DNA from: Mobula hypostoma
Lineage: Eukaryota
NCBI RefSeq assembly: GCF_963921235.1
Contig: NC_086097.1
Span: 99,822,001-99,886,000 of the forward strand
Direction of reading: 5' to 3'
Length of the DNA: 64,000 bases
Below the pieces are notes generated by a model. The model made no database searches and had not been told where the DNA came from. It saw only the letters and a list, made by a program, of their open reading frames with translations. Positions 12,860-64,000 of the stretch are shown piece after piece. The position numbers were made by a program, and so were the translations under genes. How positions within the stretch are numbered: the first letter of the stretch is position 1; each line of letters starts with the position of its first letter.

Positions 12860-13110
12860 AGAAATCACAGACACAAAGTGCTGGAAGAACTCAGTGGGCC
12901 AGGCAGCATTTACAGAGGAAAATGAAGAGTTTGAGTTTTGTGCAATGATCAGGACTGGAAAAGGAGGGGCCCACAATAAAAGTAGGGGGAGGAAGAGGAT
13001 CAACAACTGACTGGCAGGAGGACAGAGCAGGGGAGTAAAAAGGGAATAATGTGAGAAGCTAGGTGATAGGGTGGGAAGGCAAAGGGCTGAAGGAGGAATA
13101 TGATTAAGAG
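12860..13110 (-). mobile_element. PLE 3' tail fragment
   Basis: GTGCTGGAAGAACTCAGTGGGCCAGGCAGCATTTA, reverse complement of the PLE tail. Confidence 0.7.
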
Positions 13111-18090: not shown

Positions 18091-18521
18091 TTACTGTATT
18101 CACAACCAGCTCTCAAGGATGTAACTAATGTAGCCAAATATCCCAATAATCAATAGATCATACTCCAACACAATATTACTCATTTAGTAGGAAAGCGCAT
18201 CAAAAAGGAGTAGCAATACCCAACTAATTTCTTTGAGAATTAGAATTCAGTTAATGCTCTTCTACTTTATATATCAAACCAGTTTCTCTTCATTATTTTC
18301 CTTAAGCATTCCATGCAGTGAAGTTTGTTGTTAACTCCTTCCTGGATTTACTTGAGCTAATTTCTTCATGGCCCCTTCAGCATAAAATCAATTTGAAAAC
18401 CTTTGCCTTTCCTCTCCCATCCAATCCCCTCAATTTTAACACAATAGATGTAACAGTTTATAGAGACTTGTACTAATAAGCTTCCGCTACAGCTTACTTA
18501 ACAAATATCAAATTTACATAC

Positions 18522-18627
18522 CAGGTGGCACAGAAGGTGGGAAGCTTGCAAACTGTGGAGGAGGAATACCCGGCGGCAATGGGGGTATCCCTAAGGGAGG
18601 ACGATTCATATGCGGTGGAAATGACAT
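18522..18627 (-). CDS. RBM25: RBM25 exon 2, first coding exon (exon 18522-18642 includes 15 nt UTR): MSFPPHMNRPPLGIPPLPPGIPPPQFASFPPSVPPG
   Basis: Matches the RBM25 proline-rich N-terminus; acceptor TTTCAG|G at 18643/18642, donor G|GTATGT; 106 coding nt, phase 1. Confidence 0.95.
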
Positions 18628-19249
18628 TTCTCGAGCACCAACCTGAAATAGGCAACACTGATCAAAGTTAAAACTTGTAAACTTTGGTATGTTTTGAGGG
18701 CAATACTTAAAGAACAATTCACGTTGTAAAAAGCACATTTTTAATTGTCTCAAAACTAATTCAGGCATGTTGGACTTTAGTGTTAGTCAATGATGAGATG
18801 TTAGCAATCTTACCTGTCAAGCTGTGGGAAATCCTAGTCTGGATATGTTATCACAAAAAACTATACTGCTCCTACAATTCCATGGTGTCCACTTTTATTT
18901 TAACCTTCCATAAGGAACTTATTAGCACCTCAGTGACTTTGTAAAGATATTATTGTTAAACCACGAGGTCTGGTTTCTATAGCACAAGAGGGTATGGAAG
19001 AACTGGAGAAAACACAGTGATGAATCTATATCTGACAGGTTAAAATCACTGGGAAAGAGTGAACAGGCTGGGTTCTGAATAAGGATCAGGGCTGACCTGA
19101 TGAATTATGAATATTTAGTAAGACACTAACAAACTCAGGAGATCTAACAAATTCTGAATTGCATTGAAAAGAGGACGAACTTAAAATTGGAGTGGTCAAG
19201 GCAAATCACATAGCTGCAACTGAGGGAAGCAAGGGTTATATACTCGATG

Positions 19250-20075
19250 TTCAATACCATTATCTCCTCAGTATTAATCACAAGATTCTAAACCCAAGCC
19301 TCGATACCACCAACTGCAATGGGATCTTCAATGTTCTCATCGGGAGACCACAGTCAATACAGACTGGTAGTAACATCTCCTCCTCGCTGACTATCTAGAG
19401 GCGTCACAGTAACAATCTCTCACACTCAATGTCAAGACCAAAGAATTGTTTGTGGACTTCAGGAGGGAAGTTGGGAGAACACACACCAGTCCTCATTGAC
19501 AGGTCAGCAGTGGACAGGTGAACAGCTTTATGTTCCTGAGTCTCAGCGTCTTAGAGGATCTATCTTGGCCAACACATTGATAAAAGTAGGCACGCCAATG
19601 ACTGCATTCACCAGCAACTTTGATGTGTGTTACGCCAATGACTGCTTTGTTAGCGCTTGAGGAGATTTAGGATGTCACCAAAGATCTTGAAAATCATCGC
19701 TCTTACTGTCTGTATCACAGTCAGGTATGGAGGCTCCAAAGCACAGGATCACAAGAGAATGCAGAGGGCTGTACACTCAGTCAGTTCCATCACAGGCACA
19801 ACACCCAAACTCCCCACCTCTGAGGTCATCTTCAAGATGCAGTGTCCCAAAAAGGTGGCATCCATCACTAAAGATGCTTACTATTTGGGACATGCCTTCT
19901 TCTCATCATTAGAGAGGTACAATTCAGAAACAGATTCTTCCCCTCTGGCAACAGATTTCTGAACAGTCCATGAAGCCATGAATACGATCTCCTTACTGCT
20001 TTTTTTTTGGGAGTATTTACTTTATTGTGTTGTACCACTGCTGCAAAATATCCGACAGTGATAATAAGCCTGATC
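19250..20075 (+). mobile_element. Decayed Rex1/Babar-like LINE 3' part
   Basis: Homology to 34668-35650 (KTKELFVDFRR-type segment) and GTGATAATAAGCCTGAT tail. Confidence 0.65.
19606..19631 (+). mobile_element. 26-bp micro-insertion of the PLE-derived short element
   Basis: ATTCACCAGCAACTTTGATGTGTGTT between perfect 14-bp repeats ACGCCAATGACTGC (19592-19605, 19632-19645). Confidence 0.85.
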
Positions 20076-25150: not shown

Positions 25151-26039
25151 ATGGCAATGGGTACAGCAGTCATGTTGCGTGCTCTGAATCGGCATTTTCA
25201 GCTTATTTCTACTTTTTCTACACTTCTCATACAAGAAGCAGAAAGTTACATCAGGTATGATTGACTGACTATGACTATACATACATGTACACAAAACAAT
25301 CATGTATACAATCTTAGTGTTTGGGCAATATCTTCCCACATTTCCCCCCTTCATTGCGTGTACATTGCGACACAAAGATTTTTACTCCCTTGGATGTACG
25401 AGAAAGAATTAATTTTAATGAAAAAATTAAACTTCTCATCTGCATTCAAAGGGAATAACATGGAAAATTGAAAGGGATAGGCTGGTAGCTTGGGACATTT
25501 CAATGTTAAGGAGCAATCTGGCCATCAGTATCAGCCAACAATCATACTACTGCTAACTCCTACTTTTATCTTTTTCTTCCCTGTTCCCTTTGCCTTTTTC
25601 TTGCATTGGTAAATGTAATTTCTTGTTCCAAATAGTCCAGATACAGAATACTATTGACTGGTTACTCCATAGTAAGCTTTTAAGCTTCTACTGTTTTGAA
25701 TTTCCAACATTTATCCTAAAGTTTTGTCCTTCAGATTGAAATGTTAAAGAAATCTCTTCCCTGGTGAACAACAACGATCCACAGCAAAACTGCAGGGTCG
25801 ATACTATACTTCAGTCCAAACTATTATTTACACACAAGCACAAGACATTTTGCAGATGCAAGAAATCTTCAGCAACAGATGCAGAAAATCTTCAGCAACA
25901 GATGCAAAATGGTGGAGGAACTCAGAAAGATAGGCAGATTCTATTGAGGAGGATAAACAGTCAAAAATTGTAGGCCTTTATGAAAACATTTTATCAGAAT
26001 TTTCATTGACCTTTTTGTCAAGCATTTTGTTCTTGTCTT

Positions 26040-26625
26040 CAGCAAAATGCAGGATCTTCCAATAGCTCCCCATTTCAATTAAATTTCACATTTAATTCTG
26101 ACATGTCTGTCCACAACCTTCTCTACTGACAAGATGAAACCAAACAGATTGGAGCAGCAACAACTCGTTCTACCTGGGTAATCTCCAACCTGACAGCATG
26201 AATATTAATTTCCTCAGCTTCTAGAAATTTCCCCCCAACCTTCCTTTTTTCTATTCCCCATTCAGGATACCCTCTCACCCCTTCTCCTTACCTGCCCATC
26301 ACCTCCCTATGGTTCCCCTCCTCCTTCCCTTTCTTACACGGTCCACTGCCCTCTCCTATTAGATTCCTCACCAGTCCTTTACTGCTCCCACCTATCTCCT
26401 CCCAACTTCACACCCTCTCTCTGATCAATCCACCTTCCCCCTCACCTAGTCTCATCTATCACCCGTCAGCGTGTATTCCTTCCCCTTTCCCCACCCTCAT
26501 ATTCTGGCTTCTGCCCCCTTCCTTTCCAATCCTGATGAAGAGTCTTAAACCAAAACATCAACTGTTTATTCCCCTCCATTAATGCTGCCTGACTTGCTGC
26601 ATTCCTCCAGCATTGTGTGTATGCT
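26040..26625 (+). mobile_element. PLE 3' fragment with decayed hammerhead motif
   Basis: GIY-YIG C-terminal remnant, pyrimidine-rich tail, CCTGATGAAGAGTCTTAAACCAAAACATCAACTG at ~26531. Confidence 0.8.
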
Positions 26626-31630: not shown

Positions 31631-32140
31631 ACCTTATGCACGTCCAGCTAACTTGCTGATGCATTCCTCCACCACATTCATTTCAAGTTTCAATTAGGCA
31701 GATATGATTAATTTTAATACAGAACCATGCTAATCAACTTAAGTCACTCTATTCCCAATGAGGGATTCTTCTGGCTTTCCCAAAACTGACAGGCATATGG
31801 TATTCAAAATTCTCTGTCACCTTTCGTGTACTATATTAGTAATTTGCATGTTTAATTATGAGCTGTGAAAGACCACAATTCTAAGTAAGTTTATTAAGTC
31901 CCAAGGTTTTAACTTTTGTTAGCCTTACTATATCTTGAATATTAAAAAGTACTCACCCACTAAATTACCTTAAATGAAAGTCAAATACTTCAGATGCCGA
32001 AAATCTGAAACAAAAACAGAAAATGCTGGGAACACACAAATCAGGCTGCATCTGTGGAAAGAGAAACTGACTTGTTTTAAAAAAGTAAAAAACCTCTTGT
32101 GTGAACTGGAAGAAAATAAAAAACAAATCCATGGCATACA

Positions 32141-32353
32141 AGAGGAATTCTGCAGATGCTGGAATTTCAAGCAACACACATAAAAATTGCTGGTGAACGC
32201 AGCAGGCCAGGCAGCATCTATAGGAAGAGGTACAGTCAACATTTTGGGCTGAGACTCTTCGTCCTGACAAGGGTCTGGTCCGAAACATTGACTATACCTC
32301 TTCCTATAGATGCTGCCTGGCCTGCTGCGTTCACCAGCAATTTTTATGTGTGT
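32141..32353. mobile_element. Fold-back PLE-derived short element with decayed hammerhead motifs
   Basis: Inverted arms around ~32260; 13-bp TSD TCCATGGCATACA (32128-32140, 32354-32366). Confidence 0.9.
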
Positions 32354-33416
32354 TCCATGGCATACAGGTCGGGTTACACGGTGATTACACTTTTGTTTGT
32401 GTAGTATTCTGCAAGTTGCAGGGCTGTGCTACATGCCCAGCACAATCAGATTATTAATGGAGAGAAGAAAACCAAGCCATAACCACAAACAGATGACGTA
32501 CAACAGAAATGACAATAGTAACACACAGAAAGCAAACTACCCAAAGCTAGACGATTGCGTCTCGAAGGTTGAAACATGCCTCCATAGAAGACGAGGTGTT
32601 AATCTACAAACCTTCACTGGGCATTATATGGTTAAGTCAGAATAGGTGGAATAGAAAGTTAACATGGCAGGCAACAGGAAGGTTAAGGTCTCCCTTGCAG
32701 ACAAGTTGAGAAAATCACTGTGATTTTACCAAATGTAATACACCAGCTTGGAAGTGCAAATGATTAGCTGTGTCATATGGAAAGGCTGTTTGAGTCACTG
32801 GATGGTGGCTAAGGTAGGGGCAAAAGGACGAGCATGACATGAGAGTATCATAAGATAGTGAGCACAGTGAAGACTGGTAACAGAAACATGTATGCTTCCT
32901 GCTTAGAGAACTCAAAAACTTATTTCATTCATGCCCAATTACCATGCTGATCCCACCTTTACAAGGTCCATTTTGATTCCTTCCAGAATCCCTGTCTTCA
33001 TCTCAGAGAATAAACACCTATTGCTGATCTACGGGCTCCCACAGTCACCTTCACCATACTTCAACCAATCTCCCCAAAGACTACCATTCCATTTGCCCAG
33101 TTCTTCTGTCTGCAATGTATCTGCTGAGGAGTTATTTTGCACAGGCGCCTGTTTTTAAATGGTCAATTTGCCACTACCACAGAGTGCAGAGCCCCTGACC
33201 ACAATCTATTTCCTATACTTCTGCTCCTAATTCCTTTTTGTCCTGGGCAGAGTAAGAAAAGCTCCCACTATCACCAGCCTTCACATTCAACTAATCATCC
33301 TTTGACACATATGGGTTTTAACAAACAGCAGTCTCCACCAGCAGACATACTCCACCCTCAGCATTGAAGGACCCCCCCCCGATAAAGTTTAAGGGAATGG
33401 GGGATTCTCAGATCAC

Positions 33417-34148
33417 TGTAAACAATGAATTAAGTACTGACCATGTCTGTGACTGCAGTGTGTTTGAATAATGTCTCACAGCTGCCTTCTTTGGAGCAAG
33501 ATAAGGGTTAAAGTACGCCCAGATCCACATAGATCTCTCTGGGCTTTTCACACCTTTTGATTTTGACAAAAAGCAGTACCTGATGGAAATTGGACAGAAC
33601 ATTCCTTTCTTAATTAAAGCATAAATTTGACAGATGTTCTCATCTTTGTAATTAAGTTGTGGCTCCAGCAAACCAGGTAGGACATTCTTTTCTTTAATTA
33701 AGGTGGCTGGAGTGTCTAAAAAAATTGATTGTACTTTTCTATCAATAGTCCATTGACTTGGCCGGAATAGTTATCAAATTGATTGTTCTTTGTATCAATA
33801 GTCCATTGACTTGGCCGGAATGGTTATCAAACTGATTGTTCTCTGTATCGAATCCATTGACCTGACCGGAACAGTTATCAAACTGATTGTTCTCTGTATC
33901 AATAGTCCATTGACTTGATCGGAATGGTTATCAAACTGATTGTTCTTTTGTATCAGTGGCCTTATAACTTCTGACAATTCTGACATCGGGCAGTGAACTT
34001 GTAGAACCACCGGGGAGATGAGAAAGGGTCTTTCCCTGATGTCGGGTGCGAGTTCACTCGCCCGCTGAGCTCGAAGAAATAAACGGGTGAAAAGATAAGT
34101 AACGATCTTTTTGTGCTGTCGTTATTTGATCTAGTAGTTACGTTTACA
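33417..34148 (+). mobile_element. Probable solo LTR with internal ~53-bp tandem repeat
   Basis: Ends TGTAAAC...GTTTACA; TATAA ~33963 and AATAAA ~34078; TSD not evident. Confidence 0.7.
33722..33957. repeat. 51-54-bp tandem repeat, ~4.3 copies
   Basis: Unit (T/C)TGATTGTTCTCTGTATCAATAGTCCATTGACTTGGCCGGAATGGTTATCAAA. Confidence 0.92.
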
Positions 34149-34667
34149 CCCTGAGACTCCCTGGTCAAAATAGGAGAAAATCGGCAGGCACCTAACTGAA
34201 GCCAGCCTTGATCAGCAATGATTCAATGAAATCACTGATCAAGGCTACCCCAGTTCCTCTGTACCAACTTTCTAAAAGGCCTTGATCCTTCAAAATATGT
34301 ATCTAAGTAGTTCCACTGATCTACCTTCCACATCTTACAGGGCAGAGAACCACAACTACTGCAAAAAGAAATTTCTTCTTCTGAATTTCAAAGATCACAG
34401 ATCCAAACTGTTCAGACTCCATCACAGGAATTAGCTTCGTTAATTTTTTTGGATTGCTTCCAATGCAAGTCCATCTTTTTTTTTAAATATATGGGACCAA
34501 ATCTGGGCTCGATATCCCAGGTGTGTACCTTGTTTGTACAACTGTAACAAAACCTCTGTAATTGTAAGCTCCAACCCACTTGCAATATAGACAATAATGC
34601 CATTTGTCTTAACTACCTGCTGGACTGTGAACTTTGAGATTCATCTACTAGAATACTCGGATCCCTC

Positions 34668-35650
34668 TACGTGCTCAGTCCACTGCTGTTCCCTCTGCTG
34701 ACCCACGACTGTACTGCAACACACAGCTCGAACCACATCATCAAGAACGATGAGTCAGCATACAGAGACGAGGTGCAGCGGCTAACGGACTGCTGCAGAG
34801 CCAACAACCTGTCTCTGAACGTGAACAAAACAAAAGAGATGGTTGTTGACTTCAGGAGGACACGAAGCGACCATTCTCCACTGAACATCAACTACTCCTC
34901 TGTACAGATCATTAAGAGCATCTAATTTCCTGGTGTTTACCTGCTGGAGAATCTCACCTGGTCCCTCAACACCAGCTCCATAGCAAAGAAAGCCCAGCAG
35001 CGTCTCTACTTTCTGCGAAGGCTGAGGAAAGTCCATCTCCCACACCCCATCCTACTACATTCCACAGAGGTTGTATTGAGAGCACCCTGACCCAGCTGCA
35101 TCACTGCCTGGTTCGGAAACTGCACCACCTTGGATCGCAAGACCCTGCAGTGGATAGTGAGGTCAGCTGAGAATATCAACAGGGTCTCTCTTCCCGCCAT
35201 TACAGACGTTTACACCACACACTGCATCCGTAAAGCAAACAGCATTATGAAGGACCCCACGCATCCCTCATACAAACTCTTCTCCCTCCTGCCATCTGGC
35301 AAAAGGCACCGAAGCATTCGGGCTCTCACGACCTGACTATGTAACAGTTTCTTCCCCCAAGCCATCAGACTCCTCAATACCCAGAGTCTAGTCTGACACC
35401 AATCTACTGCCCTCTACTGTGCCTATTGTCTTGTCATTATTTATTGTAATGCCTGCACTGTTTTGTGCAATTTATGCAGTCCTGGGTAGGTCTGTAGTCT
35501 AGTGTGGTTTTTATGTTGTTTTACGTAGTTCAGTGTAGTTTTTGTATTGTTTCATGTAGCACCATGGTCCTGAAAAACGTTGTCTCATTTTAATGTGTAC
35601 TGTATCAGCAGTTATGGTTGAAATTACAATAAAAAGTGACTTGACTTGAC
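34668..35650 (+). mobile_element. Rex1/Babar-like LINE 3' part
   Basis: [40 protein letters not shown]; (GACTT)n tail. Confidence 0.88.
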
Positions 35651-36836
35651 ATCACTCACTTGCAGTCCTTCTCCATTTAATAATAATCTGTATTTTGAAA
35701 CCTGTTATCCAACAGCAAGATCTCACTTCCCCAAATTGAACTCCATATGCTAAGCTTTTCCTCCATTACTTAATTCATGATATATCATTCATGATATGCT
35801 CACAACATGCTCTATTTTGCATCATTAGCATGCTTGGATATCTTACATTTCCCCTTTCATCAGAGTATTTATAAGTACTAATACTTGGGATACGAGTTAT
35901 ATCTTCACTTTAGTCTCCATCTTATAGCACACACTCATGCAACCATAGTGATGGAAACCCTGGCTTTCCTACTATCCAAGCATCGAAACAGTCTTTCCAG
36001 TTGAAGCAGCAAATCACTTGCTCCAGTCTTGTGTAGAGCATGTGGTGTTCTCAATGTGATCTACAAACAGAGAAGCCAGACACAGGCTCAAGGGTTGCTT
36101 TGAAGAGCAGCTTTATTCAGTCCACAGGCGGTTCTTGCTATTGACTATTTTAATTCTGTGCCCAATTCTCATCAGTCTGTACCCTCCCACATGACTATGG
36201 CAAAACCCAATTTCAGCACGTAGAGCAACACTATTTTCAGGGGATATCATTACCTTCCAGGCTTGATGTCAAATTCTCCAACTTAAGGTAATAGCTTTCC
36301 TGTGACTAAAACAAAATTGACCATCTCTGTTCACTGTTATCCCAACCGTGAAACTAGGCACTTACTGTAGCCCTGTTATTAGCCAAATCAGACAGGAGCA
36401 CAAATCACAATCCTACTGCTCCCATTAACCCATTTGACCCAGCCATATTTCAAATAGTCCTTTCTTTTGCCCATTTTTCTCCCACACCTCCCCAACCCCC
36501 ATTTTTTCTCAACTTAAGCCATTCTCTCTTTTCCAGTGATGGCGAGGAGGAGCTTTGATTTGAAATGCTATTTAACTTTCTACAGATTTGACCTGAGTGG
36601 TTGAATCTTCCCAGCATTTTCAGTTTTCATACTAAATTAGCTTGGCAGCCATTAACACAATAGGTTTTCACTTCCTTTAACCTTAATCTACTTGAGAATT
36701 TTTCCATTCCAAACTTAATTTGCTTCACTAACTGTCTTTTGTAACATACATCTTGCTAAATTGCATAGCCCTTTGGAATACCATTTGCTGGAATGTATAT
36801 ATTTGGCATTCCCTTCATGGATAGGCTGATGATAAA

Positions 36837-36872
36837 AGTCCTGACGAAGGGTCTCGGCCTGAAACGTCGACT
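36837..36872 (+). ncRNA. Minimal type-I hammerhead ribozyme motif
   Basis: AGTC-CTGACGA-A-GGGT/CTCG/GCCT-GAAA-CGTC-GACT: stem I AGTC/GACT, intact CUGANGA and GAAA cores, GUC cleavage triplet ending 36868. Confidence 0.75.
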
Positions 36873-36970
36873 GTGTCTCTTCCTATAGATGCTGCTTGGC
36901 CTGCTGCGTTCACCAGCAACTTTGATGTATGTTGCTTGAATTTCCAGCATCTGCAGAATTCCTGTTGTTT
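36838..36970 (+). mobile_element. 133-bp PLE-derived element starting at a hammerhead ribozyme
   Basis: 13-bp TSD GCTGATGATAAAA (36825-36837, 36971-36983); homologous to the tail of the long PLE. Confidence 0.9.
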
Positions 36971-37231
36971 GCTGATGATAAAACTGATGGTTTGTCTTGT
37001 TCTTTACCAATGCAACCTGAAATGTACTAAACATTACTTTGCAAGTGCCACTCAGTGGGCTTGGCTCTCACATCTCAATATTTTGACACAAACAGCCCAA
37101 GTATTTCACATATGAATGCTTTTTAAGAATATAATTTACATTTCAATATACATTCGTAAATGTTACGGAAGGACAGTACTAAAATTTTCCTTGACAATTA
37201 TCATACTCCAAACAAGGGAACAGCTTTCTTT

Positions 37232-37454
37232 AAAAACGCAAACATGAGGAATTCTGCCGATGCTGGAAATTCAAGCAACACACATCAAAGTTGCTGGTGA
37301 ACGCAGCAGGCCAGGCAGCATCTCTAGGAAGAGGTACCGTTGACATTTCAGGCCAAGACCCTTCGTCAGGACTAGGGTCTCGGCCTGAAACGTCGACTGT
37401 ACCTCTTCCTAGAGATGCTGCCTGGCCTGCTGGGTTCACCAGCAACTTTGAAGT
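37232..37454. mobile_element. Fold-back PLE-derived element (minus-strand unit 37232-37373 plus inverted partial copy)
   Basis: 14-bp TSD GAACAGCTTTCTTT (37218-37231, 37455-37468); minus-strand AGTCCTGACGAAGGGTCTTGGCCTGAAATGTC. Confidence 0.9.
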
Positions 37455-38289
37455 GAACAGCTTTCTTTGTGGACATGAGAAAATTTGCAGATGCTGCTGG
37501 AAATCCAGCATTTTGTGCGTGTAGCTTTCTTCATGGGATTTTCAGGGCCGTAAACATTGATATCCATGACCAGTTTTTTCCACTCCTAATTGTGGTCTGG
37601 ACTCTGACAGCTACAGGTAAGAACAGACTTGGAAGAGTTCAGCCTGCCAGTTATTATTATCTATTATAGAGTGAGCAACACAGGCATCTTTGCAGTCTAC
37701 TACTCCAAAAATATAATGTAAGAGATGCTAGTGCCTTGATTATGGGTATTTACAAGAGGCCTTGTGTTTGTGTGACTATACTTTAAGATTAAATTTCAAG
37801 TGTTTTATCAGGATAAGGACTTCATTTAACTTCCTCTTCCTAGTTAAGCAACCCTCTCCAAGGGATTATGTTCTTTCCAAACCTAGCACTGAATTCAGAG
37901 GATTAATTTCTCTCCCTCTGGGACACAAGCTAGGGCCTTTCTTCAAGGTCAAAGCAGAGGTCTTCCTCAGTCTCATCTACTGCTGCCAGGGCTGGAGCTC
38001 GCATCAATTACCATGCGGTGCTGGCTCTGTGTGAGATATGCACTTATCCTACAGCAAGAGTTGTTGGGACACCAGAATCTTAATGGAAAATCTCAACTGA
38101 AGGTGATGACATTGCTCTTCCAGCCTTGCAGAAGGTGATGCAGCCACTGCCTTGCACCAAGTACATCATTTTCTGCCATTTAGATGCCACAATAGCAGTG
38201 AGAAAGAGCCTGGGTTCCCAAATTGTGACTGAGTGCAAAATAGTACAGCAGATTTTCCAGCCCACCACATCTGCATCAACCTTTATGTC

Positions 38290-38720: not shown

Positions 38721-40626
38721 CAGCTCTGGCAGTTGTATAAAACATTCTACAAATTATAGCAAGCCTATGTGAAATAATACAACGTGAGTAGCTATAAAAG
38801 CAGATGTTTCTAACCGAAGGAGAAATAGGCTTACCAACAATTGTCAGGAACACTGAGACTGCCAATCATCTCAAAAAATGTAGCATCTCACACTTGTCTG
38901 GAATACATACCATTAGCCATTTCTTAATCCAAACTTCGAACTGATCTATATCCTGCTGTATCCATTCACAACTGTCTATAACTCCAATTCTCATATCAGC
39001 TACAAATTTCCATTCAAGTGTGTGCATGGGCATGGGATCCCAGCACTAAATCCATGCGAATCACCATTGATCACAGACCTCCAGTCAGAAAAGCATCCTT
39101 CCACCTCTACCTAGTCTTCAAAATTCAAGTGAATTTTGGAACTAATTTCCTAACTTGTGACTTAATTTTTTGAACAAAAGTCTTGGGAATAAATGACAGA
39201 AGAAACTTAAGTCTATTATTGTTGAGGGTGTCCACGTATATCCTGGTCTTTAGTGTAAATTATCTGGGTCCAACTTGACTGGAAACCATACTATATTACA
39301 TTGTCACTGCACAAATACGGGTGGACCTGCCCATCAACATTTGCCATCATGTATGCACTTCCACATACATATTAAGCTCATGCTCACATCCTTGCTGTCT
39401 CTACCTTGTCCTTCCATTTGAACCTTCTTTACTTAGACTTCTCATTTCTCCTTGTTCAATATCTCTCCCTACCCAAGTTTCTCCCAGCTTCCGATTAACC
39501 CTTACCCTTCTTGCCCTCTTTCTTGTATCCTGTCATTTGGTGCAAATTATTACAGAAGAGTAAGGAAGGATGAAAGGCAACATCTCTGTACACTCTTGGT
39601 CACTCTGAGATCATCTTTATTGACCACAATGGTTGGAAAAAAACAGCCATCTTACAGCCTGCAGATTCAACAGTACCCAAGTCCAGCTGAGCAACTTCTC
39701 TCCAGTCCCAGTTCTGCGCAGTCTGAAAAACAGCAGAAATCCCTTCAGGTTTCCCCATGTCTGGGCGAATAATGCCTGTAGCTTTCAAAGAAATCAACCA
39801 TGGGCTTGTCATTAGTACAAGTGAACAATTCTATTCCACAGCAAACCACCCAAAATTATTCTATGCTGTCAACCTTGACCAAGAATGTTGAAGAGGCCTT
39901 GTGACGAATGAAAAACAAAAAGGCCTGGCAGGTGGTATCACTAGTAAGTAAGAGGTGTCAGAGAGCTGCTGTTTGGCCTCAGTGAGGTAGTGGTCCGTCC
40001 ACCAGACTACTACGGCGCCACCTTTGTCTGTGGGTTTGATGGTGAGGTTGACTAAGTTCTAACATTTAACAGAAATGAACTTGAATATCAACCCACAAAC
40101 TCATCTCTTATGTCTTTGATGAGGAAGACATGGCTCATGTCCTCAATCACAACTGCAATCATCTTCAAGAATGGTAACAAATCTGAGTGTGCCAACTAGG
40201 AAGAAGCTGTGCTGCTTTCTGTAAAGGGGAAGATTGTTGCCACGAATGCTGTTCCAGTAAAATACAGCTACACGGATGGATCCTGTCCATCTGGAACACT
40301 GGTACATACAATATACACTTTGCAGCCACATTCACAATAACCAGGAGACACATGACTAGTGTATGCCCTTCCAAAATCACAAATACAATCAAACTAAATA
40401 TCAAAGTCAAGTTTAATTTCATATACACAAGTATGCATATGCACAGGTGCACTAAAAAACTTTCTTGCAATAGCATCACAGTCACATTACATCATATAAG
40501 CAGCATTCACGAGAAAAATAAATTATACACAATTTTTACAAAAAATTCATTTTAGTGAAAAGTGGTTAAAGCGCTGCTTAAATGCTGTTTAAACTTTTAG
40601 TGCAGAAATGGTGCCGGTAAGTGGTG

Positions 40627-43287
40627 CGCACAACACCACTCTATCCCTCATTCCCCCCCATTCCTCTAATTCCTCATCCTCCCCTAACCCTGCTCTCCCT
40701 GAACATCCTAACCCCCCTCCCTCCTGAGACCTCCAACTTTTTACCCTACTCTGACCCCAGCCCCAACCCATGCCGTGTCTTCACCAACCCCTCTGACCTT
40801 CCCCTCTCTGAGGTAGAACATTCTGTCCTTAACAAGGGCCTCACTTTTGTCCCCCTCCGTCCACACCTCAGTGAGTTCCATGCCCACCATGACGCTGAAC
40901 TCTTCTTCCATCGCCTACGTCTCCAAGCCTACTTCTTTGGCAAGGATTCCCCTCCCCCAACTGATAACCCCCTTCTCCCGTCTTCAACCCTCCTCCTCCT
41001 GGACACCCCGCCCAGGCCTTCTACCTGCCCTCAATCTTTTCATCTCCAACTGTCGCCGAGACATCAACCGTCTCAATTTCACCACTCCTCTCTCCTGTTC
41101 CAACCTCACTCCCTCCGAATGCACTGCCCTCCACTCTCTCTGCACTAATCCCAACCTCACCATCAAACCTGCAGACAAAGGTAGCACTGTAGTAGTCTGG
41201 CGGACGGACCTCTACCTCACTGAGGCCAAACGGCAGCTGACACCTCCTCTTACTTACCCCTGGAACAGGACCCCACCAAAAAACATCAAACCATTGTCTC
41301 CCGTACCATCACCGCCCTTATCAACTCCGGAGTCTTTCCATCCTCCGCCGCTAATCTCATATTTCCCACACCCCGTACCGCTTGGTTTTACCTCCTCCCC
41401 AAGATTCACAAGCTTGACTGTCCTGGAAGACCCATAGTTTCTGCCTGCTCCTGCCCCACTGAACTTGTATCTGCCTATTTGGACTCCATTTTGTCACCCA
41501 TAGTTCAGTTCCTCCCCACCTACATCCGGGATACATCCCATGCCCTCCACCTCTTCAATGACTTCCAGTTCCCCGGTCCCGACGGCTTCATTTTCACTAT
41601 GGATGTCCACTCCTTATACACTTCCATTCCCCATCAAGAAGGCCTCAAAGCCCTCCGCTACTCTCTGGACAATAGACCTCACCAGTTCCCCACCACCACT
41701 ACCCTCCTCTGGTTGGAAGAACTGGTACTCACACTTAATAACTTCTCTTTTGGCTCTTCCCACTTTCTTCAGACCAAGGGTGTAGCTATGGGCACTCGCA
41801 TGGGCCCCAGCTATGCCTGCCTCTTTGTTGGTTATATGGAACAGACTATGCTCCAAACCTTTACTGGTACTGCTCCCCAACTTTTCCTTCGCTACATTGG
41901 TGCTGCTTCCTGCACCCATGCTGAGCTCGTCAATTTCATCGACTTTGCTTCTAACTTCCACCCAGACCTCAAATTCACTTGGTCCATCTCGGACACCTCT
42001 CTCCCCTTTCTCAATCTCTCGGTCTCCATCTCTGGAGATAGACTGTCCACTAACATCCTCTATAAGCCCACTGACTCTTATAACTACCTCGACTATACCT
42101 CTTCCCACCCTGCCACATGCAAAAATGCCATTCCCTATTCCCAGTTCCTCTGTCTCCGCTGCATCTGCCCCCAGGATGAGACTTTCTGTTCCAGGACATC
42201 TCAAATATCCTCTTTCTTTAAGGATCGTGGTTTCCCTTCTGCCGCCACCAATGATGCCCTCACCCGCATCTCCTTCATTTCCCGCACTTTGGCCCTCACC
42301 CCATCCTCCTGTCACCACAACAGTGACAGAGTTCCCCTTGTCCTCACCTACCACCCCACCAGCCTCCGGATCCAGCACATTATCCTCCACCACCTTCAAG
42401 AGGACCCCACCGCTAAGCATATCTTTCCCTCTCTACCCCTCTCCGCAGGAATCATTCCCTCTGCGACTCCCTGGTCCACAGGTCCCTCCCCACGGATCTC
42501 CCACCTGGCACTTATCCTTGCAAGCTTAAGTTCTACATCTCCTTTCTCACCACCATTCAGGGCCCCAAACAGTCCTTCCAGGTGAGGCAACACTTCACTT
42601 ATGAGCCTGCTGAGGTCACCTATTGCATCCGGTGCTCACGGTGCAGCCTCCTCTACATCGGTGAGACCGGACGACGATTGGGGGACCGCTTCGTCGAGCA
42701 CCTCCGCTCCATCCGCCACAACAGACAGGATCTCCCGGTTGCCACCCACTTCAACTCTGCTTCACATTCCCATTCAGATATGTCCATACATGGCCTCTTT
42801 TACTGCCATGATGAGGTCAAACTCAGGTTGGAGGAGCAACACCTCATATACTGTCTGGGTAGTCTCCAGCCCCTTAGCATGAACACTGAATTCTCCAACT
42901 TCTGGTAATCCCCTTCCCCCATCCGTTTCATTCTGCCCCCTCCCCCAGCTGCCTATCACTTCCCTCATGGTTCCGCCTCCTTCTACTACCCATTGTGCTC
43001 CCCCCATTCCTTCTTCACCTTTCCTGCCTACCCCCTCCCTGCTCCCCCCCCCCACCCCTTGAACTTTCCCTTTACTGGTTTTTCACCTGGCACCTACCAG
43101 CCTTCTCCTTCCCACCCTCCCCCCACCTTCTTTATAGGGCCCCTGACCCCTCCCTCTTCAGTCCTGACAAAGGGTCTCCGCCTGAAACGTTAACTGTTCG
43201 TTTCCACGGATGCTGCCCGACCTGCTGAGTTCCTCCAGCGTGTTGTGCATGTTGTTTTGACCCCAGCATCTGCAGAGTATTTTGTGT
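40627..43287 (+). mobile_element. Penelope-like retroelement (RT plus GIY-YIG endonuclease), frameshifted
   Basis: IKPADKG, FTMDVHSLYTSIPH, QTKGVAMGTRMGPSYACLF, YCIRCSRCSLLYIGETGRRLGDRFVEH; hammerhead-like tail 43159-43196; 15-bp TSD with one mismatch (40612-40626, 43288-43302). Confidence 0.95.
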
Positions 43288-43974
43288 TGCCGATAAGTGG
43301 TGACTGTTTGCTTGCAGCTCCGATGGGAATCATTAAGACCTATTTAGGACTACTACAGTTAAATCCACTATCACAGCCATGGGTACTTCAGTAAGCACAT
43401 CGTTTTAAGATGCTAAAAACATCTATCAATACTCAAAATCAGTGAATCTTGGACTGCATTCTTGGGTTGCGAGTGCAGCTCATCTTGACAAAAATGGAAG
43501 CGGGGAAGGTGTGCTGGTCTATAGGTGCGATTGAAATGCAGAAGCCTTAAACTTGCACTCCTGACTCCAGAGGGACATCAGGAACTGCTATGTACATTGC
43601 CTCACAGAGACATGGCTGACCACCATTTTAGATGCAGCACTGAAGCCCAAAGGCTTCACAATTGTCTGCAGACTCTAAAGGTGAGTTTTCTACAGGTAGA
43701 GGAGGTGGAATGTTGAAAGGCCTTGATAATTTGGATGTGGAGATGATGTTTGGAAGAGCCTAGGACCAGAGGGCACAGCCTCAGAATAGAGGAGTGTCCT
43801 TTTACAGCAGAGATGAGGAGATATTTCGAGTGGTGAATCTGTTGCCAAAGGCAACTATGGAGGCCAAGTCTTTACGAATATTTAAGGAAAAAGTTGGATC
43901 AGCCATGATGAAATGGCGGGGCAGGCTCAAAAGGCCAAATGGCCTAATTCTGCTCCTATATCGCATGGAATATG

Positions 43975-47858: not shown

Positions 47859-47980
47859 CGGTGCGGACTGACCCGATCTACGAAGAAAGTGTGGCTGCTG
47901 CAACGATGCAGTGGCCTGTTCACGGTGTGCAGCGGCGCCACTCCCGGCCTTCGCACTGCCTCGCTCCCGGAACAACAGCG
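47859..47980 (-). other. RBM25: RBM25 putative non-coding exon 1 (5' UTR); TSS approximate
   Basis: Strong donor CCG|GTAAGT (intron starts 47858) inside the only CpG island in the window; no ATG in the exon; nearest plausible first exon upstream of the ATG exon. Confidence 0.7.
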
Positions 47981-48196
47981 CCAGCCCGCGCACGTAGCCG
48001 AACGCCTGCCGCACGCCTGCGTCACGCCGCCAGCCCGCGCGCGTAGCCGCACGCCTGCGTCACGCCGCCAGACCGCGCGCGTAGCCGCACGCCTGCGTCA
48101 CGCCGCCAGACCGCGCGCGTAGCCGCACGCCTGCGTCACGCCGCCAGACCGCGCACATAGCGGCACGCCTGCGTCACGCCGTCAGCCCGCGCACGC
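47979..48196. repeat. 38-bp GC-rich minisatellite, 5 copies plus a partial, in the proximal promoter
   Basis: Unit GCACGCCTGCGTCACGCCGCCAG(A/C)CCGCGCGCGTAGCC starting at 48011, 48049, 48087, 48125, 48163. Confidence 0.95.
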
Positions 48197-49239
48197 AGAT
48201 TGCGTCCTGGTAGTAGTCCGTGACTCCAAGTGGTATTCGCTGTCTCCTTGTTTTCTTCGCGCCCGTTTCTCTCATGCTTTGATTTATTTTGCTGTTCGCT
48301 CTACGTCGTGAGCGGGGACACAGGGAGAAGGGTTTGTTTCATTACTTGGGCAACGTGCATGCACCCCTTCAAAATTCCAGATGTTACTGCCATTAATACT
48401 GAGGTTATCCTAAACCTGACACCCACCATGACCCCAAATTTGCACATTCACACCTTCTTCCTAAAAGCCCCATCAACCTCAGCCCTCCCTTACCTCTGTT
48501 ATCGCCTCTCCACCCCCAGGATTTCCCGCATGAGGTCTGCAAACCTCATTCCTTCAACCCTCTTTTATATTGCTATGAATTATTATTCCAATTACTTCAG
48601 TTCGGCAGTCACATCCCAATTGTCCACATATGGAAACTTGTAGCTCAGTAATGAGAAATCTATCAGTCAAACGTTGGTTTGACCCAAGAGCATTGAGCAG
48701 AGGAGTCCTGGCTAATACTCCACTCTGCGTCTGGCACTCAGCTGCAGTGAGCATCCCATTAGAGTGCCAAACTCTTGTGAACAAACTCATTCAGAATTGC
48801 CAATGGCTCTGCTCCAGGAAAGTTGAGTGGAATCCTTGGGTGAAGGAAATATAAGAGCAGATGTATTCCCTCACTGCCAATCACCCACATATAAGTTAGG
48901 ACCATACATATCGAGAAAAGATAGCTCGCAACACGGTTAAATTGTGCCAAGTCTTCAATCAGCTGCAAATTATAGTGACAGTATTAAAAAAAATACAGGA
49001 AGTACCAACTTAGGCAGAATTTGTGGGGACACAGAATTAACATTTTAGATGGATAACCTTTTATTGGAAACTTTAAATTCTGTTTCTCTTTTCCTTAGTG
49101 CTGAATGATCATCTGATTATTTTCAGCATTATTCATTTTATTTCAAATTTCCAGCATCTTCCATAGAATTTTCCATTCTAATTTTCTTGCCTTTGAAATC
49201 CAAAGTCCATGATGACTGATCAATTATTGGGATAGTGGG

Positions 49240-49755
49240 CATTGTAACAAATTGGATAGTGACAGGTTGACTCTTTGGGTTTTGGCAGGTTCAGTGTCAC
49301 TGTTTGGTTAATGTCAGGTTTGGTGTTTATGGATTGATGTTGACAGATTCATTATTGATAAGTTTGGTGTTTGCAGGTTCAATGTTGGCAAGTTGAGTGT
49401 TGACAGGTTGGGTTTTGACAGAGTGTTGATTGTTGACAGGTTGGTGCTTATGGGATTGGGTGTTTACTGGTTAGGTGTTTACCGGTTGGATGTCGACAAG
49501 TTGGATGTTTATGGGATTGGGTGTTTACAGGTTGGGTGTTGACAGGTTGGATGTTTATGGGATTGGGTGTTTACTGGTTGGGTGTTTACCGGTTGGATGT
49601 TTACTGGTTGAGTGTTTTGGGTGTTTATGGGTTGGGTGTTGACAGGTTGGATGTTTATGGGATTGGGTGTTTACTGGTTGGGTGTTTTGGATGGGTTGGG
49701 TGTTGACAGGTTGGATGTTTGTGGGTTTGGGTGTTGACAAATTGGGTTTTGACTG
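49240..49755. repeat. G/T-rich degenerate minisatellite with 15-16-bp units
   Basis: Alternating GGGTGTTTACTGGTT / GGGTGTTGACAGGTT / GGATGTTTATGGGATT units. Confidence 0.85.
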
Positions 49756-49759
49756 TTGC

Positions 49760-50910
49760 GTTTTAAAACTAATCAGTAAACTGCAAGACCAGGGGTTTAA
49801 TACCCCCTTGTGCAATTGGATCCTGGATTTCCTCATTTGTAGACCCAGTCCATTCGGACTGGTAAAAGCGTTTCCTCCACAGTCTCCATCAGTACAGGAG
49901 CACCGCAGGGATGTGTACTTAGCCCCCTGCTCTACTTGCTTTACACCCATGACAGTGTGGCTAAGTACAGCTCCAATACCATATACAAGTTTGCTGATGA
50001 CACTATGGTTGTGGCTGTATCAAAGCTGGTGATGAATCAGCATACAAGAGGGAGATTGAAAATTTGGTTGAGTGGTGTAATAACAACAACCTCTCATTCA
50101 ATGTCAGTAAGACCAAGGAACTGATTGTAGACTTCAGGAGGGGGAAACCAGAGTCCATGAGCCAGTAATCATCAGAGGTGGAGAGGGTCAGTAACTTTAA
50201 CTTCCTGTGTGTCACTATCTCAGTGGACCTGTACTGGACCCATCATATAAATACAAAAGTATAATTGCGAAGGAAACACAATAGAGCCTCTACTTCCTCA
50301 GGAGTCTGCGGAGATTCGGTACGTCATCAAAAACCTTGGCAAACTTCTATAGATGTGTGGTGGAAAGATTGGCCGCAGTACAGCCTGGTACGGGAACACC
50401 AACGTCTTTGAGTGGAAAATCCTACAAAAGGTCGTGGGTTTGTCCCAGTACATCACAGGTAAAACCCTCCCAACCACTGAGCATGTGTACATGAAAAATT
50501 ACCATAGAAAAGCAGCATCGCATCCATCATCAAAGATCCTCACCACCCAGGCCATGCTCTTTTCCCACTGCTGCCATCAGGTAGAAGGTACAATTGCCTC
50601 AGGACTCACACCACCAGATTCAAGAACAATTACTACCCTCAACCATCAGGCTCTTGAACAAAAGGGTATAACTACACTCATTTAAGGACTCTTTTATCTT
50701 GATATTTTATGTTCATTATTTATTGCTATTTATTCACTATCTGCATTTGCACAGTTTGTTTACAGTTTCTGATGTTTACAGTTTACAGATGCTGTTTATA
50801 GTTACTGTTCTATAGATTTGCTAAATATGCCCATAGAGAAAGAATCTCTGGGTTGTATGTGGTGACATGTATGTACTCTGATAATAATTTTTACTTTGAT
50901 CTTTGAAATT
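49760..50910 (+). mobile_element. Rex1/Babar-like LINE 3' part
   Basis: LCNWILDFL, YTHD, YKFADDT; CTGATAATAATTTTTACTTTG tail. Confidence 0.85.
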
Positions 50911-55479: not shown

Positions 55480-58290
55480 GACCCTACCACTAAACACATC
55501 TTTACCTCATCCCCCACTCTCTGCTTTCTGCAGGGATCACTCTCTGTGATTCCCTTGTCCATTCATTCCTCCCCATTAATCTCCCTCCTGGAACTTTTCC
55601 CTGCAGGTGGAGGATGTGCTACATCCGCCCATTCACCTCCTCCGCCACCTCCATTCAGGGCCCCAAACAGTCCTTCAAGGTGAGGCAACATTTCAGTTAC
55701 GAATCTGTCAGTGTCATCTACCATATCCAGTCCTCCCAATACAGCATCCTCTGTATCAGTGAGAGACAATGTAGATCAGGGGACCACTTTGTCGAGCACT
55801 TTTGCTCCAACCATGACAAGCAGTATTTCCTGGTGGCCAACCATTTTAATTCCAATCCCTTTTCCCATTCCAACATGTTCATCCATGGCATCCTCTACTG
55901 ACACAATGAGACCACTCTCAGGTTGAAGGAGCAACACCTCATATTCCATCTGGGTAGCCACCAAACTGATAGAAACATAGAAACATAGAAAATAGGTGCA
56001 GGAGTAGGCCATTCAACCCTTCGAGCCTGCACCGCCATTTATTATGATCATGGCTGATCATCCAACTCAGAACCCCGCCCCAGCCTTCCCTCCATACCCC
56101 CTGACCCCTGTAGCCACAAGGGCCATATCTAACTCCCTCTTAAACATAGCCAATGAACTGGCCTCAACAGTTTGCTGTGGCAGAGAATTCCACAGATTCA
56201 CCACTCTCTGTGTGAAGAAGTTTTTCCTAATCTCCGTCCTAAAAGGCTTCCCCTCTATCCTCAAACTGTGACCCCTCGTTCTGGACTTCCCCAACATCGG
56301 GAACAATCTTCCTGCATCTAGCCTGTCCAATCCCTTTAGGATCTTATACGTTTCAATCAGATCCCCCCTCAATCTTCTAAATTCCAACGAGTACAAGCCC
56401 AGTTCATCCAGTCTTTCTTCATATGAAAGTCCTGCCATCCCAGGAATCAATCTAGTGAACCTTCTTTGTACTCCCTCTATGGCAAAGATGTCTTTCCTCA
56501 GATTAGGGGACCAAAACTGCACACAATACTCCAGGTGTGGTCTCACCAAGGCGTTGTACAACTGCAGTAGTACCTCCCTGCTCCTGTACTCGAATCCCCT
56601 CGCTATAAATGCCAGCATACCATTCGCCTTTTTCACCGCCTGCTGTACCTGCATGCCCACTTTCAATGACTGGTGTATAATGTCACCCAGGTCTCGTTGC
56701 ACCTCCCCTTTTCCTAATCGGCCACCATTCAGATAATAATCTGTTTTCCTATTTTTGCCACCAAAGTGGATAACTTCACATTTATCCACATTAAATTGCA
56801 TCTGCCATGAGTTTGCCCACTCACCCAACCTATCCAAGTCACCCTGCATCCTCTTAGCATCCTCCTCACTGCTAACACTGCCGCCAAGCTTCGTGTCATC
56901 CGCAAACTTGGAGATGCTGCATTTAATTCCCTCATCCAAGTCATTAATATATATTGTAAACAACTGGGGTCCCAGCACTGAGCCTTGCGGTACCCCACTA
57001 GTCACCGCCTGCCATTCTGAAAAGGTCCCGTTTATTCCCACTTTTTGCTTCCTGTCTGCTAACCAATTCTCCACCCACACCAATACCTTACCCCCAATAC
57101 TGTGTGCTTTAAGTTTGCACACTAATCTCCTATGTGGGACCTTGTCAAAAGCCTTTTGAAAATCCAAATATACCACATCCACTGGTTCTCCCCTATCCAC
57201 TCTACTAGTTACATCCTCAAAAAATTCTATGAGATTCGTCAGACATGATTTTCCATTCACAAATCCACGCTGACTTTGTCCGATCATTTCTCCGCTTTCC
57301 AAATGTGTTGTTATCACATCTTTGATAACTGACTCCAGCAGTTTCCCCACCACCGACGTTAGGCTAACCGGCCTATAATCCCCCGGTTTCTCTCTCCCTC
57401 CTTTTTTAAAAATTGGGGTTACATTAGCCACCCTCCAATCCTCAGGAACTAGTCCAGAATCTAACGAGTTTTGAAAAATTATCACTAATGCATCCACTAT
57501 TTCTTGGGCTACTTCCTTAAGCACTCTGGGATGCAGACCATCTGGCCCTGGGGATTTATCTGCCTTCAATCCCTTCAATTTACCTAACACCACTTCCCTA
57601 CTAACATGTATTTCACTCAGTTCCTCCATCTCACTGGACCCTCTGTCCCTTACTATTTCTGGAAGATTATTTATGTCCTCCTTAGTGAAGACAGAACCAA
57701 AGTAATTATTCAATTGGTCTGCCATGTCCTTGCTCCCCATAATCAATTCACCTGTTTCTGTCTGCAGGGGACCTACATTTGTCTTTACCAGTCTTTTCCT
57801 TTTTACATATCTATAAAAGCTTTTACAGTCCGTTTTTATGTTCTCTGCCAGTTTTCTCTCATAATCTTTCTTCCCCTTCCTAATTAAGCCCTTTGTCCTC
57901 CTCTGCTGAACTCTGAATTCCTCCCAGTCCTCAGGTGAGCCACTTTCTCTGGCTAATTTGTATGCTACTTCTTTGGAATTGATACTATCCCTAATTTCTC
58001 TTGTCAGCCACGGGTGCACTACCTTCCTTGATTTATTCTTTTGCCAAACTGGGATGAACAATTGTTGTAGTTGATAGTATGAAGGTCAATTTCTCTACCT
58101 TCCAGTAATTTTCCCCTCCTCCTTCCCTGTTTCATTTCCCACTCTGGTTCCCCTCTTGCCTCTTCTCTTCACCTCACTTGCCTATCACCTCCCAGGAGCG
58201 ACCCTCCTCCTTCCCTTTCTCCCTTGTTCCACTGTCCTCTACTATCAGATTCCTTCTTCTTCAGTACAGACCTTTTCCACCTATTCCTTT
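55480..58290 (+). mobile_element. PLE GIY-YIG remnant split by the CR1 insertion (55480-55972 and 58072-58290)
   Basis: IQGPKQSFKVRQHF...GDHFVEH; sequence resumes after the CR1. Confidence 0.8.
55973..58071 (-). mobile_element. Young 5'-truncated CR1 LINE with an uninterrupted 664-aa ORF2 portion (complete RT, no endonuclease)
   Basis: [51 protein letters not shown] (55967-55972, 58072-58077). Confidence 0.97.
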
Positions 58291-63940: not shown

Positions 63941-64000
63941 AACACACACCAAAGTTGCTGGTGAACGCAGCAGGCCAGGCAGCATCTGTAGGAAGAGGTA
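63941..64000 (-). mobile_element. Another copy of the short PLE-derived element, cut by the window edge
   Basis: AACACACACCAAAGTTGCTGGTGAACGCAGCAGGCCAGGCAGCATC. Confidence 0.85.

Follow-up and report, generated by a model that had tools for sequence, protein, structure and literature searches.

Two short insertions in the analysed window (64,000 nucleotides of Mobula hypostoma contig NC_086097.1), E1 (32141-32353) and E2 (37232-37454), are head-to-head hairpins of 210-220 bases, each lying within a single TSD. Judged from its sequence, the unit from which they are built corresponds to the 3′ pseudo-LTR terminus of a Penelope-like element (PLE) and includes a minimal hammerhead. With moderate confidence, we attribute the inversion to two cDNAs that were primed at the nicks on both target strands, began at different RT start sites and were then joined, a reading drawn from these two dissected hairpins and two less clear cases in the window. 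Unit positions are counted from the start of a plain copy, U3 (unit 1 = window position 36837).

32128-32140, unstranded: E1 left TSD, 13 bp, exact
32141-32263, minus strand: E1 left arm, tailed, the 3′ unit of the PLE pseudo-LTR from unit ~127 to 7/8
32261-32268, plus strand: E1 turn, a 2-nt loop flanked by 3-nt inverted microhomology, the loop sharing the polarity of the tail-less right arm
32261-32353, plus strand: E1 right arm, unit 2 to 96/97, tail-less
32354-32366, unstranded: E1 right TSD, 13 bp, exact
37218-37231, unstranded: E2 left TSD, 14 bp, exact
37232-37373, minus strand: E2 left arm, unit 142 to 1, tailed, owner of the 11-nt loop 37363-37373
37374-37454, plus strand: E2 right arm, unit 12 to 92, tail-less
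37455-37468, unstranded: E2 right TSD, 14 bp, exact

The initial annotation, which is partly supported as a whole, had described a minus-strand unit joined to an inverted partial copy at both loci and one 13/14-bp TSD around each structure, and both descriptions hold. The inverted arms span 80 nt in E1 (32168-32247 and 32280-32359) and 82 nt in E2 (37281-37362 and 37374-37455), with 93% identity in each. An exact flanking repeat of at least 12 bp occurred in 0 of 1500 random boundary pairs spaced 200-250 nt, the longest being 11 bp (2 of 1500), which rules out the TSDs as chance repeats. The DNA fold z-scores were -20.9 for E1 and -17.7 for E2, and none of 200 shuffles of either folded equally well. 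The turns lie at 32260-32263 and 37373/37374; the junctions first placed at about 32260 and 37373, inside or beside the hammerhead, thus keep their positions, with the refinement that they fall at its 5′ edge and that neither hairpin holds an intact hammerhead.

Each hairpin has one arm ending in the 30-40-nt PLE 'tail' (unit 127 in E1, 142 in E2) and one tail-less arm (unit 97 in E1, 92 in E2), the E2 right arm stopping at 92/93 and so missing the ends at 97-98 by 4-5 nt. The loop belongs to the tail-less arm in E1 and to the tailed arm in E2. The two insertions differ in turn, in both termini and in diagnostic variants. We take them as genomic rather than as assembly artefacts because of their TSDs and the separate CpG decay of their arms, different CpGs being hit in the two arms of one hairpin.

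The identity of the unit was established from U3 and from a decayed long PLE in the same window:

36825-36837, unstranded: U3 left TSD, 13 bp, ending in a base that fits unit position 1 as well
36837-36970, plus strand: U3, plain non-inverted tailed copy starting at the hammerhead 5′ edge
36837-36872, plus strand: minimal type I hammerhead motif in U3, matching the descriptor, with the architecture given in the excerpts of PMC4209133
36971-36983, unstranded: U3 right TSD
40612-43302, plus strand: decayed long PLE of an older subfamily, with RT and GIY-YIG remnants and a 15-bp TSD (one mismatch)
40627-40636: inverted tail-less mini-arm of the long PLE, 10 nt, 9/10 match
43160-43287: tailed hammerhead pseudo-LTR end of the long PLE

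The U3 motif comprises a 4-bp helix I, the core, an unpaired base, helix II, GAAA and a palindromic helix III, with a predicted cut at 36868/36869 (unit 32/33). It was the only descriptor match in the whole window, so E1 and E2 lack an intact minimal hammerhead; their motifs are adjoining, clipped and decayed. The PLE feature of a minimal type I hammerhead in the pseudo-LTR is therefore carried by the U3 match. Rfam at gathering thresholds gave no matches. The minimum-energy structure that RNAfold gives for U3 (z -0.24) does not contain the hammerhead; a dimer-type motif is expected to behave in this way, and this fold was not used as evidence. The U3 site appears to be empty in three related organisms. 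In longer copies, a pyrimidine tract and AG precede the first base of helix I, resembling a 3′ splice acceptor of the kind reported for the D. virilis intron.

The four arms and U3 gave 73-81% blastn matches to the 3′ end of the 40627-43290 element, whose end repeat is 76% identical. This element contains a GIY-YIG domain above the cut-off (E 4.9e-5) and a weak RT match below it (E 1e-3). It is an older subfamily and not the direct parent of the E1 and E2 units; a direct autonomous partner is absent from the window. Only 0.4% of 20000 random 10-mers equalled the 9/10 match of its mini-arm. TSD lengths of the five insertions are 13, 14, 13, 14 and 15 bp, variable and unrelated in sequence. Homology to the end of an element with RT and GIY-YIG remnants, a tail on one arm and variable TSDs thus place E1 and E2 among EN+ PLEs, in agreement with their initial annotation as single retro-type insertions of a PLE terminal repeat.

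Two further copies of the same subfamily were found:

19590-19643, plus strand: tiny plain insertion, tail-less end at unit 97, 14-bp TSD, read by eye with approximate limits
63940-64000, minus strand: copy truncated by the edge of the window, its tail-less end at unit 98

The outer ends fall into two classes. The right arms of E1 and E2 and the copies at 19.6k and 64k end tail-less at unit 92-98, and U3 and the left arms of E1 and E2 end with the tail at unit 127-142. The long PLE at 40.6-43.3k likewise pairs a tailed end with a tail-less inverted arm, of 10 nt. TSDs were searched around the copies at 12.9k, 26k, 55k, 58k and 60k and none was found, so an inverted pair at 25.9-26.6k is only tentative. 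For the exon near 18.6k, a search of the PDB found no matches.

The family is very abundant in sequencing runs (70277 contigs in run X1). A scan with the unit pattern gave no loci in viral contigs, metagenome contigs or prokaryote genomes, in none of which the unit is expected. The run survey covered the 15 best-supported of 42 joints, 12 of 68 rows with letters between and 24 of 820 loose-end rows. In two opposite-strand joints among those 15, from runs X1 and X6, unit 2-3 meets unit 90 or 97; from their coordinates, they read as a second arm consisting of the tail only.

According to the mechanism that we favor, each hairpin would be one 5′-truncated insertion, made in trans by a PLE RT/GIY-YIG protein. 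The endonuclease would nick both target strands 13-14 bp apart and a cDNA would be primed at each nick, one from a distal RT start site giving the tailed end (unit ~127-142) and the other from an internal one giving the tail-less end (unit ~92-98). Both would extend toward the usual 5′ limit of the template, the hammerhead 5′ edge, and be joined head to head through 0-3 nt of microhomology, gap filling leaving a single TSD. The hairpin shape would be a by-product, the inverted PLE layout resembling a fold-back if both cDNAs are short and nearly equal, and the turn would not be set by ribozyme cleavage. Such an origin would agree with the initial proposal that the inversion is made during integration, which appears the best explanation.

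In vitro, the PLE protein of Poseidon from Anolis carolinensis nicks and extends both strands, is predicted to dimerize, starts RT at two tail-delimiting sites and does not need ribozyme cleavage (excerpts of PMC11167929). A hammerhead in the pseudo-LTR is common to both systems; Poseidon is another PLE family, for which these excerpts describe no inverted products, whereas E1 and E2 are known from sequence alone. More tentatively, and with considerable doubt, the template 5′ limit of the present family could be the first base of helix I, with a dimeric RT/endonuclease priming both nicks from two RT start sites. If so, short fossil products of this kind would number in the thousands in the genome, and the polarity of their loops and the ends of their arms could settle how inverted pseudo-LTRs form.

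Self-priming is a possible but rather improbable alternative. In this case, the 3′ end of a cDNA or antisense RNA would fold back near the hammerhead 5′ edge and be copied into a hairpin, one end of which would be trimmed by endonuclease or repair before integration. Palindromes at the junctions of inverted PLE copies led Arkhipova et al. 2013 to infer self-priming, for which they favored an antisense template (PMC3846280, in excerpt), and the 3-bp stem and 2-nt loop of the E1 turn pre-exist in the unit. However, the simple cDNA fold-back initially proposed cannot build E1: the loop is owned by the tail-less arm, therefore the tailed arm cannot be its self-copy unless the loop owner was later trimmed to unit 97, a point that is also a plain-copy end. 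This argument hinges on a 2-nt loop, and two 1-nt deletions lie nearby in the right arm, within the hammerhead motif. E2 alone fits a fold-back, because its tailed arm owns the loop, but pairing at its join is 0-1 nt. The arms of the 40627 case (10 nt) and of the joints with unit 90 or 97 overlap barely or not at all.

Comparison of the arms, suggested initially as a check, bore out a closer identity within an insertion (7/79 and 6/80 differences) than between insertions (10-11 of 79-80). Arms of one insertion have common diagnostic variants and are concordant at all four sites separating E1 from E2 (unit 24, 50, 84 and 88); the unit 84 variant is a minor one, accounting for about 3% of the depth in run X1. 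This concordance would favor self-priming, but it is also expected if, as seems likely, each insertion came from one source subfamily and element.

It is quite unlikely that the hammerhead fixes the inversion point, either by cleavage or by RT stalling or template switching at its fold. Both turns do fall in the opening 12 nt of the motif, but they lie 21-31 nt upstream of the predicted cut, and the initial view of the ribozyme as turn site is rejected as far as cleavage is concerned. An RT moving 3′ to 5′ would presumably first reach the fold at unit 36, whereas the four arms end at unit 1, 2, 7 and 12. The hammerhead 5′ edge is also where the plain copy U3 starts, and 5′ clipping at unit 2, with long, near-random flanks, is among the six loose-end sites listed in three of four runs (290, 270 and 173 contigs); therefore ribozyme cleavage does not appear to set the turn. 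No loose-end site at the cut 36868/9 occurs among the 24 of 820 rows listed. In other inverted junctions (40627; unit 90 and 97), one arm stops well away from the motif. In addition, cleavage-dead mutants insert normally in vitro (PMC11167929) and Naiad PLEs, which lack canonical hammerheads, still form inverted structures (PMC8557442), according to the excerpts of both papers. On the other side, unit 31-38 is linked to unit 0-4 in several listed rows whose kind is unstated, and another such row joins the tail end (36972) to unit 33 (36869), exactly at the cut site, with a depth of 69; therefore cleavage may shape a minority of products.

Very unlikely, too, is copying of E1 and E2 from hairpin masters multiplying as units, as a retro-mobilised fold-back family, or their origin as a DNA-transposon MITE. 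Their size and turn position are alike and the arms agree within each element, but their turns, both termini and diagnostic variants differ. A high-copy fixed junction should rank first among the joints, therefore the absence of E1- or E2-type joints from the best 15 of 42 counts against a master, although near-palindromic joints may escape detection. The MITE-like hairpins of the initial annotation thus stand as hairpins made by a retro mechanism, with no sign among those 15 joints of a multiplying MITE-like family. DNA MITEs share the hairpin shape and have fixed terminal inverted repeats and a transposase-type TSD. Both features were looked for and neither is present, in line with the initial exclusion of a DNA transposon: the one-sided tail makes the termini asymmetric and non-inverted, and the TSDs (13 vs 14 bp; 13-15 bp and unrelated in sequence across the insertions) are not of a fixed type. 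The abundance of the family might suggest an assembly artefact, a rearrangement after integration or a pair of independent insertions. All of these are highly improbable given one exact 13/14-bp TSD outside each structure and none inside, and arms with common subfamily variants but different CpG decay, unlike an artefactual fold-back read.

L1 twin priming likewise starts cDNA synthesis on both strands of the target and leaves a head-to-head inversion within a single TSD. Its arms come from different parts of one RNA, whereas those of E1 and E2 overlap over about 80 nt. Our literature search listed no paper applying twin priming to PLEs.

The pattern itself is already known: E1 and E2 are the shortest form of a described PLE integration mode, whose inverted layout and self-priming explanation have been published (excerpts of PMC3846280 and PMC8557442). 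Like the inverted-pLTR EN+ PLEs of Adineta vaga shown there (Pen2a_Av etc., PMC3846280; overall scheme in PMC8557442 Fig. 2), they have a 5′-truncated copy inverted head to head within one TSD, a junction that overlaps or is palindromic, and a 30-40-nt tail confined to one of the arms. They differ in that their arms are reduced to the terminal 80-140 nt and enclose no ORF, the turn lies at the hammerhead 5′ edge, and the TSDs are 13-14 bp, compared with 8-10 bp in the rotifer PLEs (PMC3846280). Metazoan PLE minimal hammerheads share the short helix I, the unpaired base before helix II and the palindromic helix III, and in Schistosoma hammerhead pairs occur on opposite strands 100-700 bp apart (PMC4209133, in excerpt); the E1 and E2 motifs, by comparison, adjoin and none passes the descriptor. 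Non-LTR retrozymes, according to the excerpts of 10.64898/2026.07.22.740005, are likewise short non-coding hammerhead-bearing PLE derivatives. This class was rejected for E1 and E2, which are head to head and lack both an intact motif and a head-to-tail tandem of complete type I hammerheads.

A search of the literature on PLE MITE-like hairpins, self-priming, pLTR/hammerhead/intron and cartilaginous-fish PLEs, with subscription papers and bioRxiv supplements outside its coverage, listed no paper on such short hairpins, and the origin of PLE tandem and inverted structures is called still undefined in the excerpts of PMC8557442. E1 and E2 are useful here as a test case, since the E1 loop polarity distinguishes self-priming from two-nick priming by sequence, in a family abundant enough for a census. 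Such hairpins are open to mislabelling as MITEs in annotation. One lying in a transcribed intron would be expected to give rise to double-stranded RNA of about 80 bp.

The head-to-head hairpins E1 (32141–32353) and E2 (37232–37454), described in the initial annotation as fold-back copies, were borne out by their exact TSDs, by arms with 93% complementarity across 80–82 nt, and by strong folding (z-scores of about −21 for E1 and −18 for E2). As a chance control, none of 1500 random boundary pairs with similar spacing carried a flanking repeat of at least 12 bp. Both hairpins are real features of an already known kind. Their boundaries and arms, together with U3, a plain copy of the same unit, are as follows.

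Hairpins E1 and E2 and the plain copy U3 (unit numbering starts at 36837)
32128–32140 and 32354–32366: TSD of E1, 13 bp, exact
E1 left arm: unit 127 to 7, minus strand
E1 right arm: unit 2 to 97
37218–37231 and 37455–37468: TSD of E2, 14 bp, exact
E2 left arm: unit 142 to 1
E2 right arm: unit 12 to 92
36837–36970: U3, plain copy of the E1/E2 unit, between E1 and E2, with its own 13-bp TSD

The 5′ start of U3 is a minimal type I hammerhead motif, the sole descriptor match in the window, composed of a 4-bp helix I, the conserved core, one unpaired base, helix II, GAAA, and a palindromic helix III stub, with a predicted cut after unit 32. This architecture matches that of metazoan Penelope-like elements (PLEs) in PMC4209133; a search of Rfam at gathering scores gave no match. 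A decayed long PLE (40627–43287) contains a GIY-YIG domain that passes the Pfam cut-off, together with a weak RT match that falls below it; its terminal repeat, in the same orientation as the ORF, shares 76% identity with U3. Since this GIY-YIG/RT element ends in a U3-like repeat, the unit is the 3′ pseudo-LTR terminus of a PLE that carries an endonuclease. The long PLE is of an older subfamily, and the direct parent of the unit is absent from the window. The repeats suggest a cartilaginous fish, probably a ray, as the host. A piece of the long PLE (41152–41257) recurs inverted at 39944–40050 with 86% identity.

Outer ends fall into two classes, tailed at unit 127–142 (E1 left arm, E2 left arm, and U3) and tail-less at unit 92–98 (E1 right arm, E2 right arm, and copies at 19.6k and 64k), the tail being a PLE extension of 30–40 nt. 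Plain copies show both classes, and each hairpin combines one end of each. The same pairing is seen in the long PLE (40612–43302 including its TSD of 15 bp with one mismatch), where the tail-less end region is represented by an inverted 10-nt segment at the 5′ end, directly inside the TSD; this mini-arm matches at 9/10 positions, a score equalled by 0.4% of 20000 random 10-mers. The arm-to-arm comparison suggested in the initial annotation revealed that arms are closer within insertions (7/79 differences in E1 and 6/80 in E2, over unit 13–92) than between them (10–11 of 79–80), and with CpG sites excluded the values were 3 (E1) and 2 (E2) within versus 5–6 between, of 70. Four sites distinguishing E1 from E2 are common to both arms of each hairpin, and the CpGs of the two arms decayed independently; each hairpin therefore derives from one source subfamily and aged in place.

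The four inner ends lie at unit 1, 2, 7, and 12, and U3 likewise starts at unit 1–2. The proposed position of the turn beside the hammerhead is retained, but that the ribozyme sets it is not supported, since the turns are 21–31 nt upstream of the predicted cut. In three of four sequencing runs, the six loose-end sites listed included one before unit 2 (290, 270, and 173 contigs), where the clipped flanks were long and close to random; most clipping before unit 1 comes from longer copies. No cut-site clipping occurred among the 24 of 820 loose ends listed. Among the best 15 of 42 joints, three switch strand and none is of E1 or E2 type; two of the three pair unit 2–3 with unit 90 or 97, which we interpret as a complete tail-less arm joined to an arm made of the tail alone. 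Among joints with intervening letters, of unstated kind (12 of 68 listed), several connect unit 31–38 to unit 0–4 and one connects the tail end to the cut site at unit 33 (36972 to 36869). A joint going back 35 nt across the whole hammerhead (36837–36872) was present at low depth in each of the four runs; this and the tail-to-cut-site joint are possible tandem ribozymes or circle junctions. Because of these joints, cleavage may have a role in forming some products, though not in forming E1 or E2.

The hairpin architecture and the fold-back idea of the initial annotation are already in print, as three papers attest. An inverted pseudo-LTR overlapping a direct one, a 31-bp tail confined to one of the arms, a single TSD enclosing the whole structure, and palindromes at the junction are described in PMC3846280. 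The inverted arrangement is given as the typical PLE layout, of undefined origin, in PMC8557442, which also reports it in Naiads, elements devoid of canonical hammerheads, and hammerhead pairs on opposite strands are mentioned in PMC4209133. Among the open-access papers listed by our searches, none dealt with these ORF-less mini hairpins or with a loop-polarity test. The remaining value of these hairpins lies in a simple test of two-nick priming versus self-priming, and in the unexplained 5′ limit of the unit at helix I.

At the E1 turn, a 3-nt inverted match flanks a 2-nt loop that has the orientation of the right arm, so the tail-less arm reached furthest and owns the loop. The E2 turn has an 11-nt loop owned by the tailed arm, with 0–1 nt of pairing at the join. 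We moderately favor a model in which cDNA synthesis would be primed at both target nicks, from a different RT start site at each, and the resulting pair of cDNAs would then be joined head to head. This model accounts for both hairpins, for plain copies with either kind of outer end, for the 10-nt mini-arm, and for the tail-only joints. It is in keeping with in vitro results for an anole PLE (PMC11167929), where both target strands are nicked and extended, RT begins at two sites delimiting the tail, the protein is predicted to be dimeric, and ribozyme cleavage is dispensable. A fold-back copy of the tail-less E1 cDNA would be without a tail, yet the left arm has one, and this tailed arm cannot be copied from the tail-less, loop-owning arm unless the latter was trimmed later. 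Self-priming followed by trimming is unlikely, and would be most plausible on antisense RNA, a hypothesis put forward in PMC3846280.

Regarding the 5′ limit, a pyrimidine tract precedes unit 1 in the three longer, older copies examined, two of which have CAG there and the third CAA.

Pyrimidine tract and first bases of the hammerhead, resembling a 3′ splice-acceptor site
43135–43162
26504–26531
12945–12985

The Drosophila virilis intron is reported in PMC4209133 to terminate at the 5′ edge of helix I, which makes a splice acceptor a candidate for this limit.

At 80% likeness, 70277, 43509, 15659, and 14467 contigs were placed on U3 in the four public runs, counts that represent contig fragments including related subfamilies and not copy numbers. 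In the three runs from other organisms, contig depth is equal on both U3 flanks, and one piece begins exactly at the right TSD copy. We infer that the U3 site is empty in these three related organisms, the skip joint being absent among the joints listed; the U3 TSD would therefore be genuine. U3 reads as a recent, lineage-specific insertion. Most CpGs of U3 are intact (36825–36983).

Two further PLE arrangements were observed. At 25850–26620, an eroded older-subfamily pair consists of a minus-strand tailed pseudo-LTR end, reaching approximately the 5′ edge of the hammerhead, followed by a tail-less PLE end that is longer and on the plus strand; a TSD was sought for this pair and not found. A minus-strand remnant at 7942–9300 resembles a partial tandem, in which another tailed end lies near 9005.

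A coding exon that is rich in proline and flanked by splice signals (18518–18644, minus strand), which presumably resembles the start of RBM25, had no match in a PDB search. A candidate donor at 47861 (minus strand) lies within a GC-rich island that also holds a GC-rich 38-bp tandem repeat (47959–48197), and E1, U3, and E2 may be inside a first intron of about 29 kb. Two LINE 3′ ends (2728–3598 and 55969–58085), 52 kb apart in opposite orientation, are 98% identical, and the latter contains an open RT frame of 672 aa, which we take to be CR1-like. Other tandem repeats are of about 52 bp (33696–33946) and, TG-rich, of about 15 bp (49363–49766).
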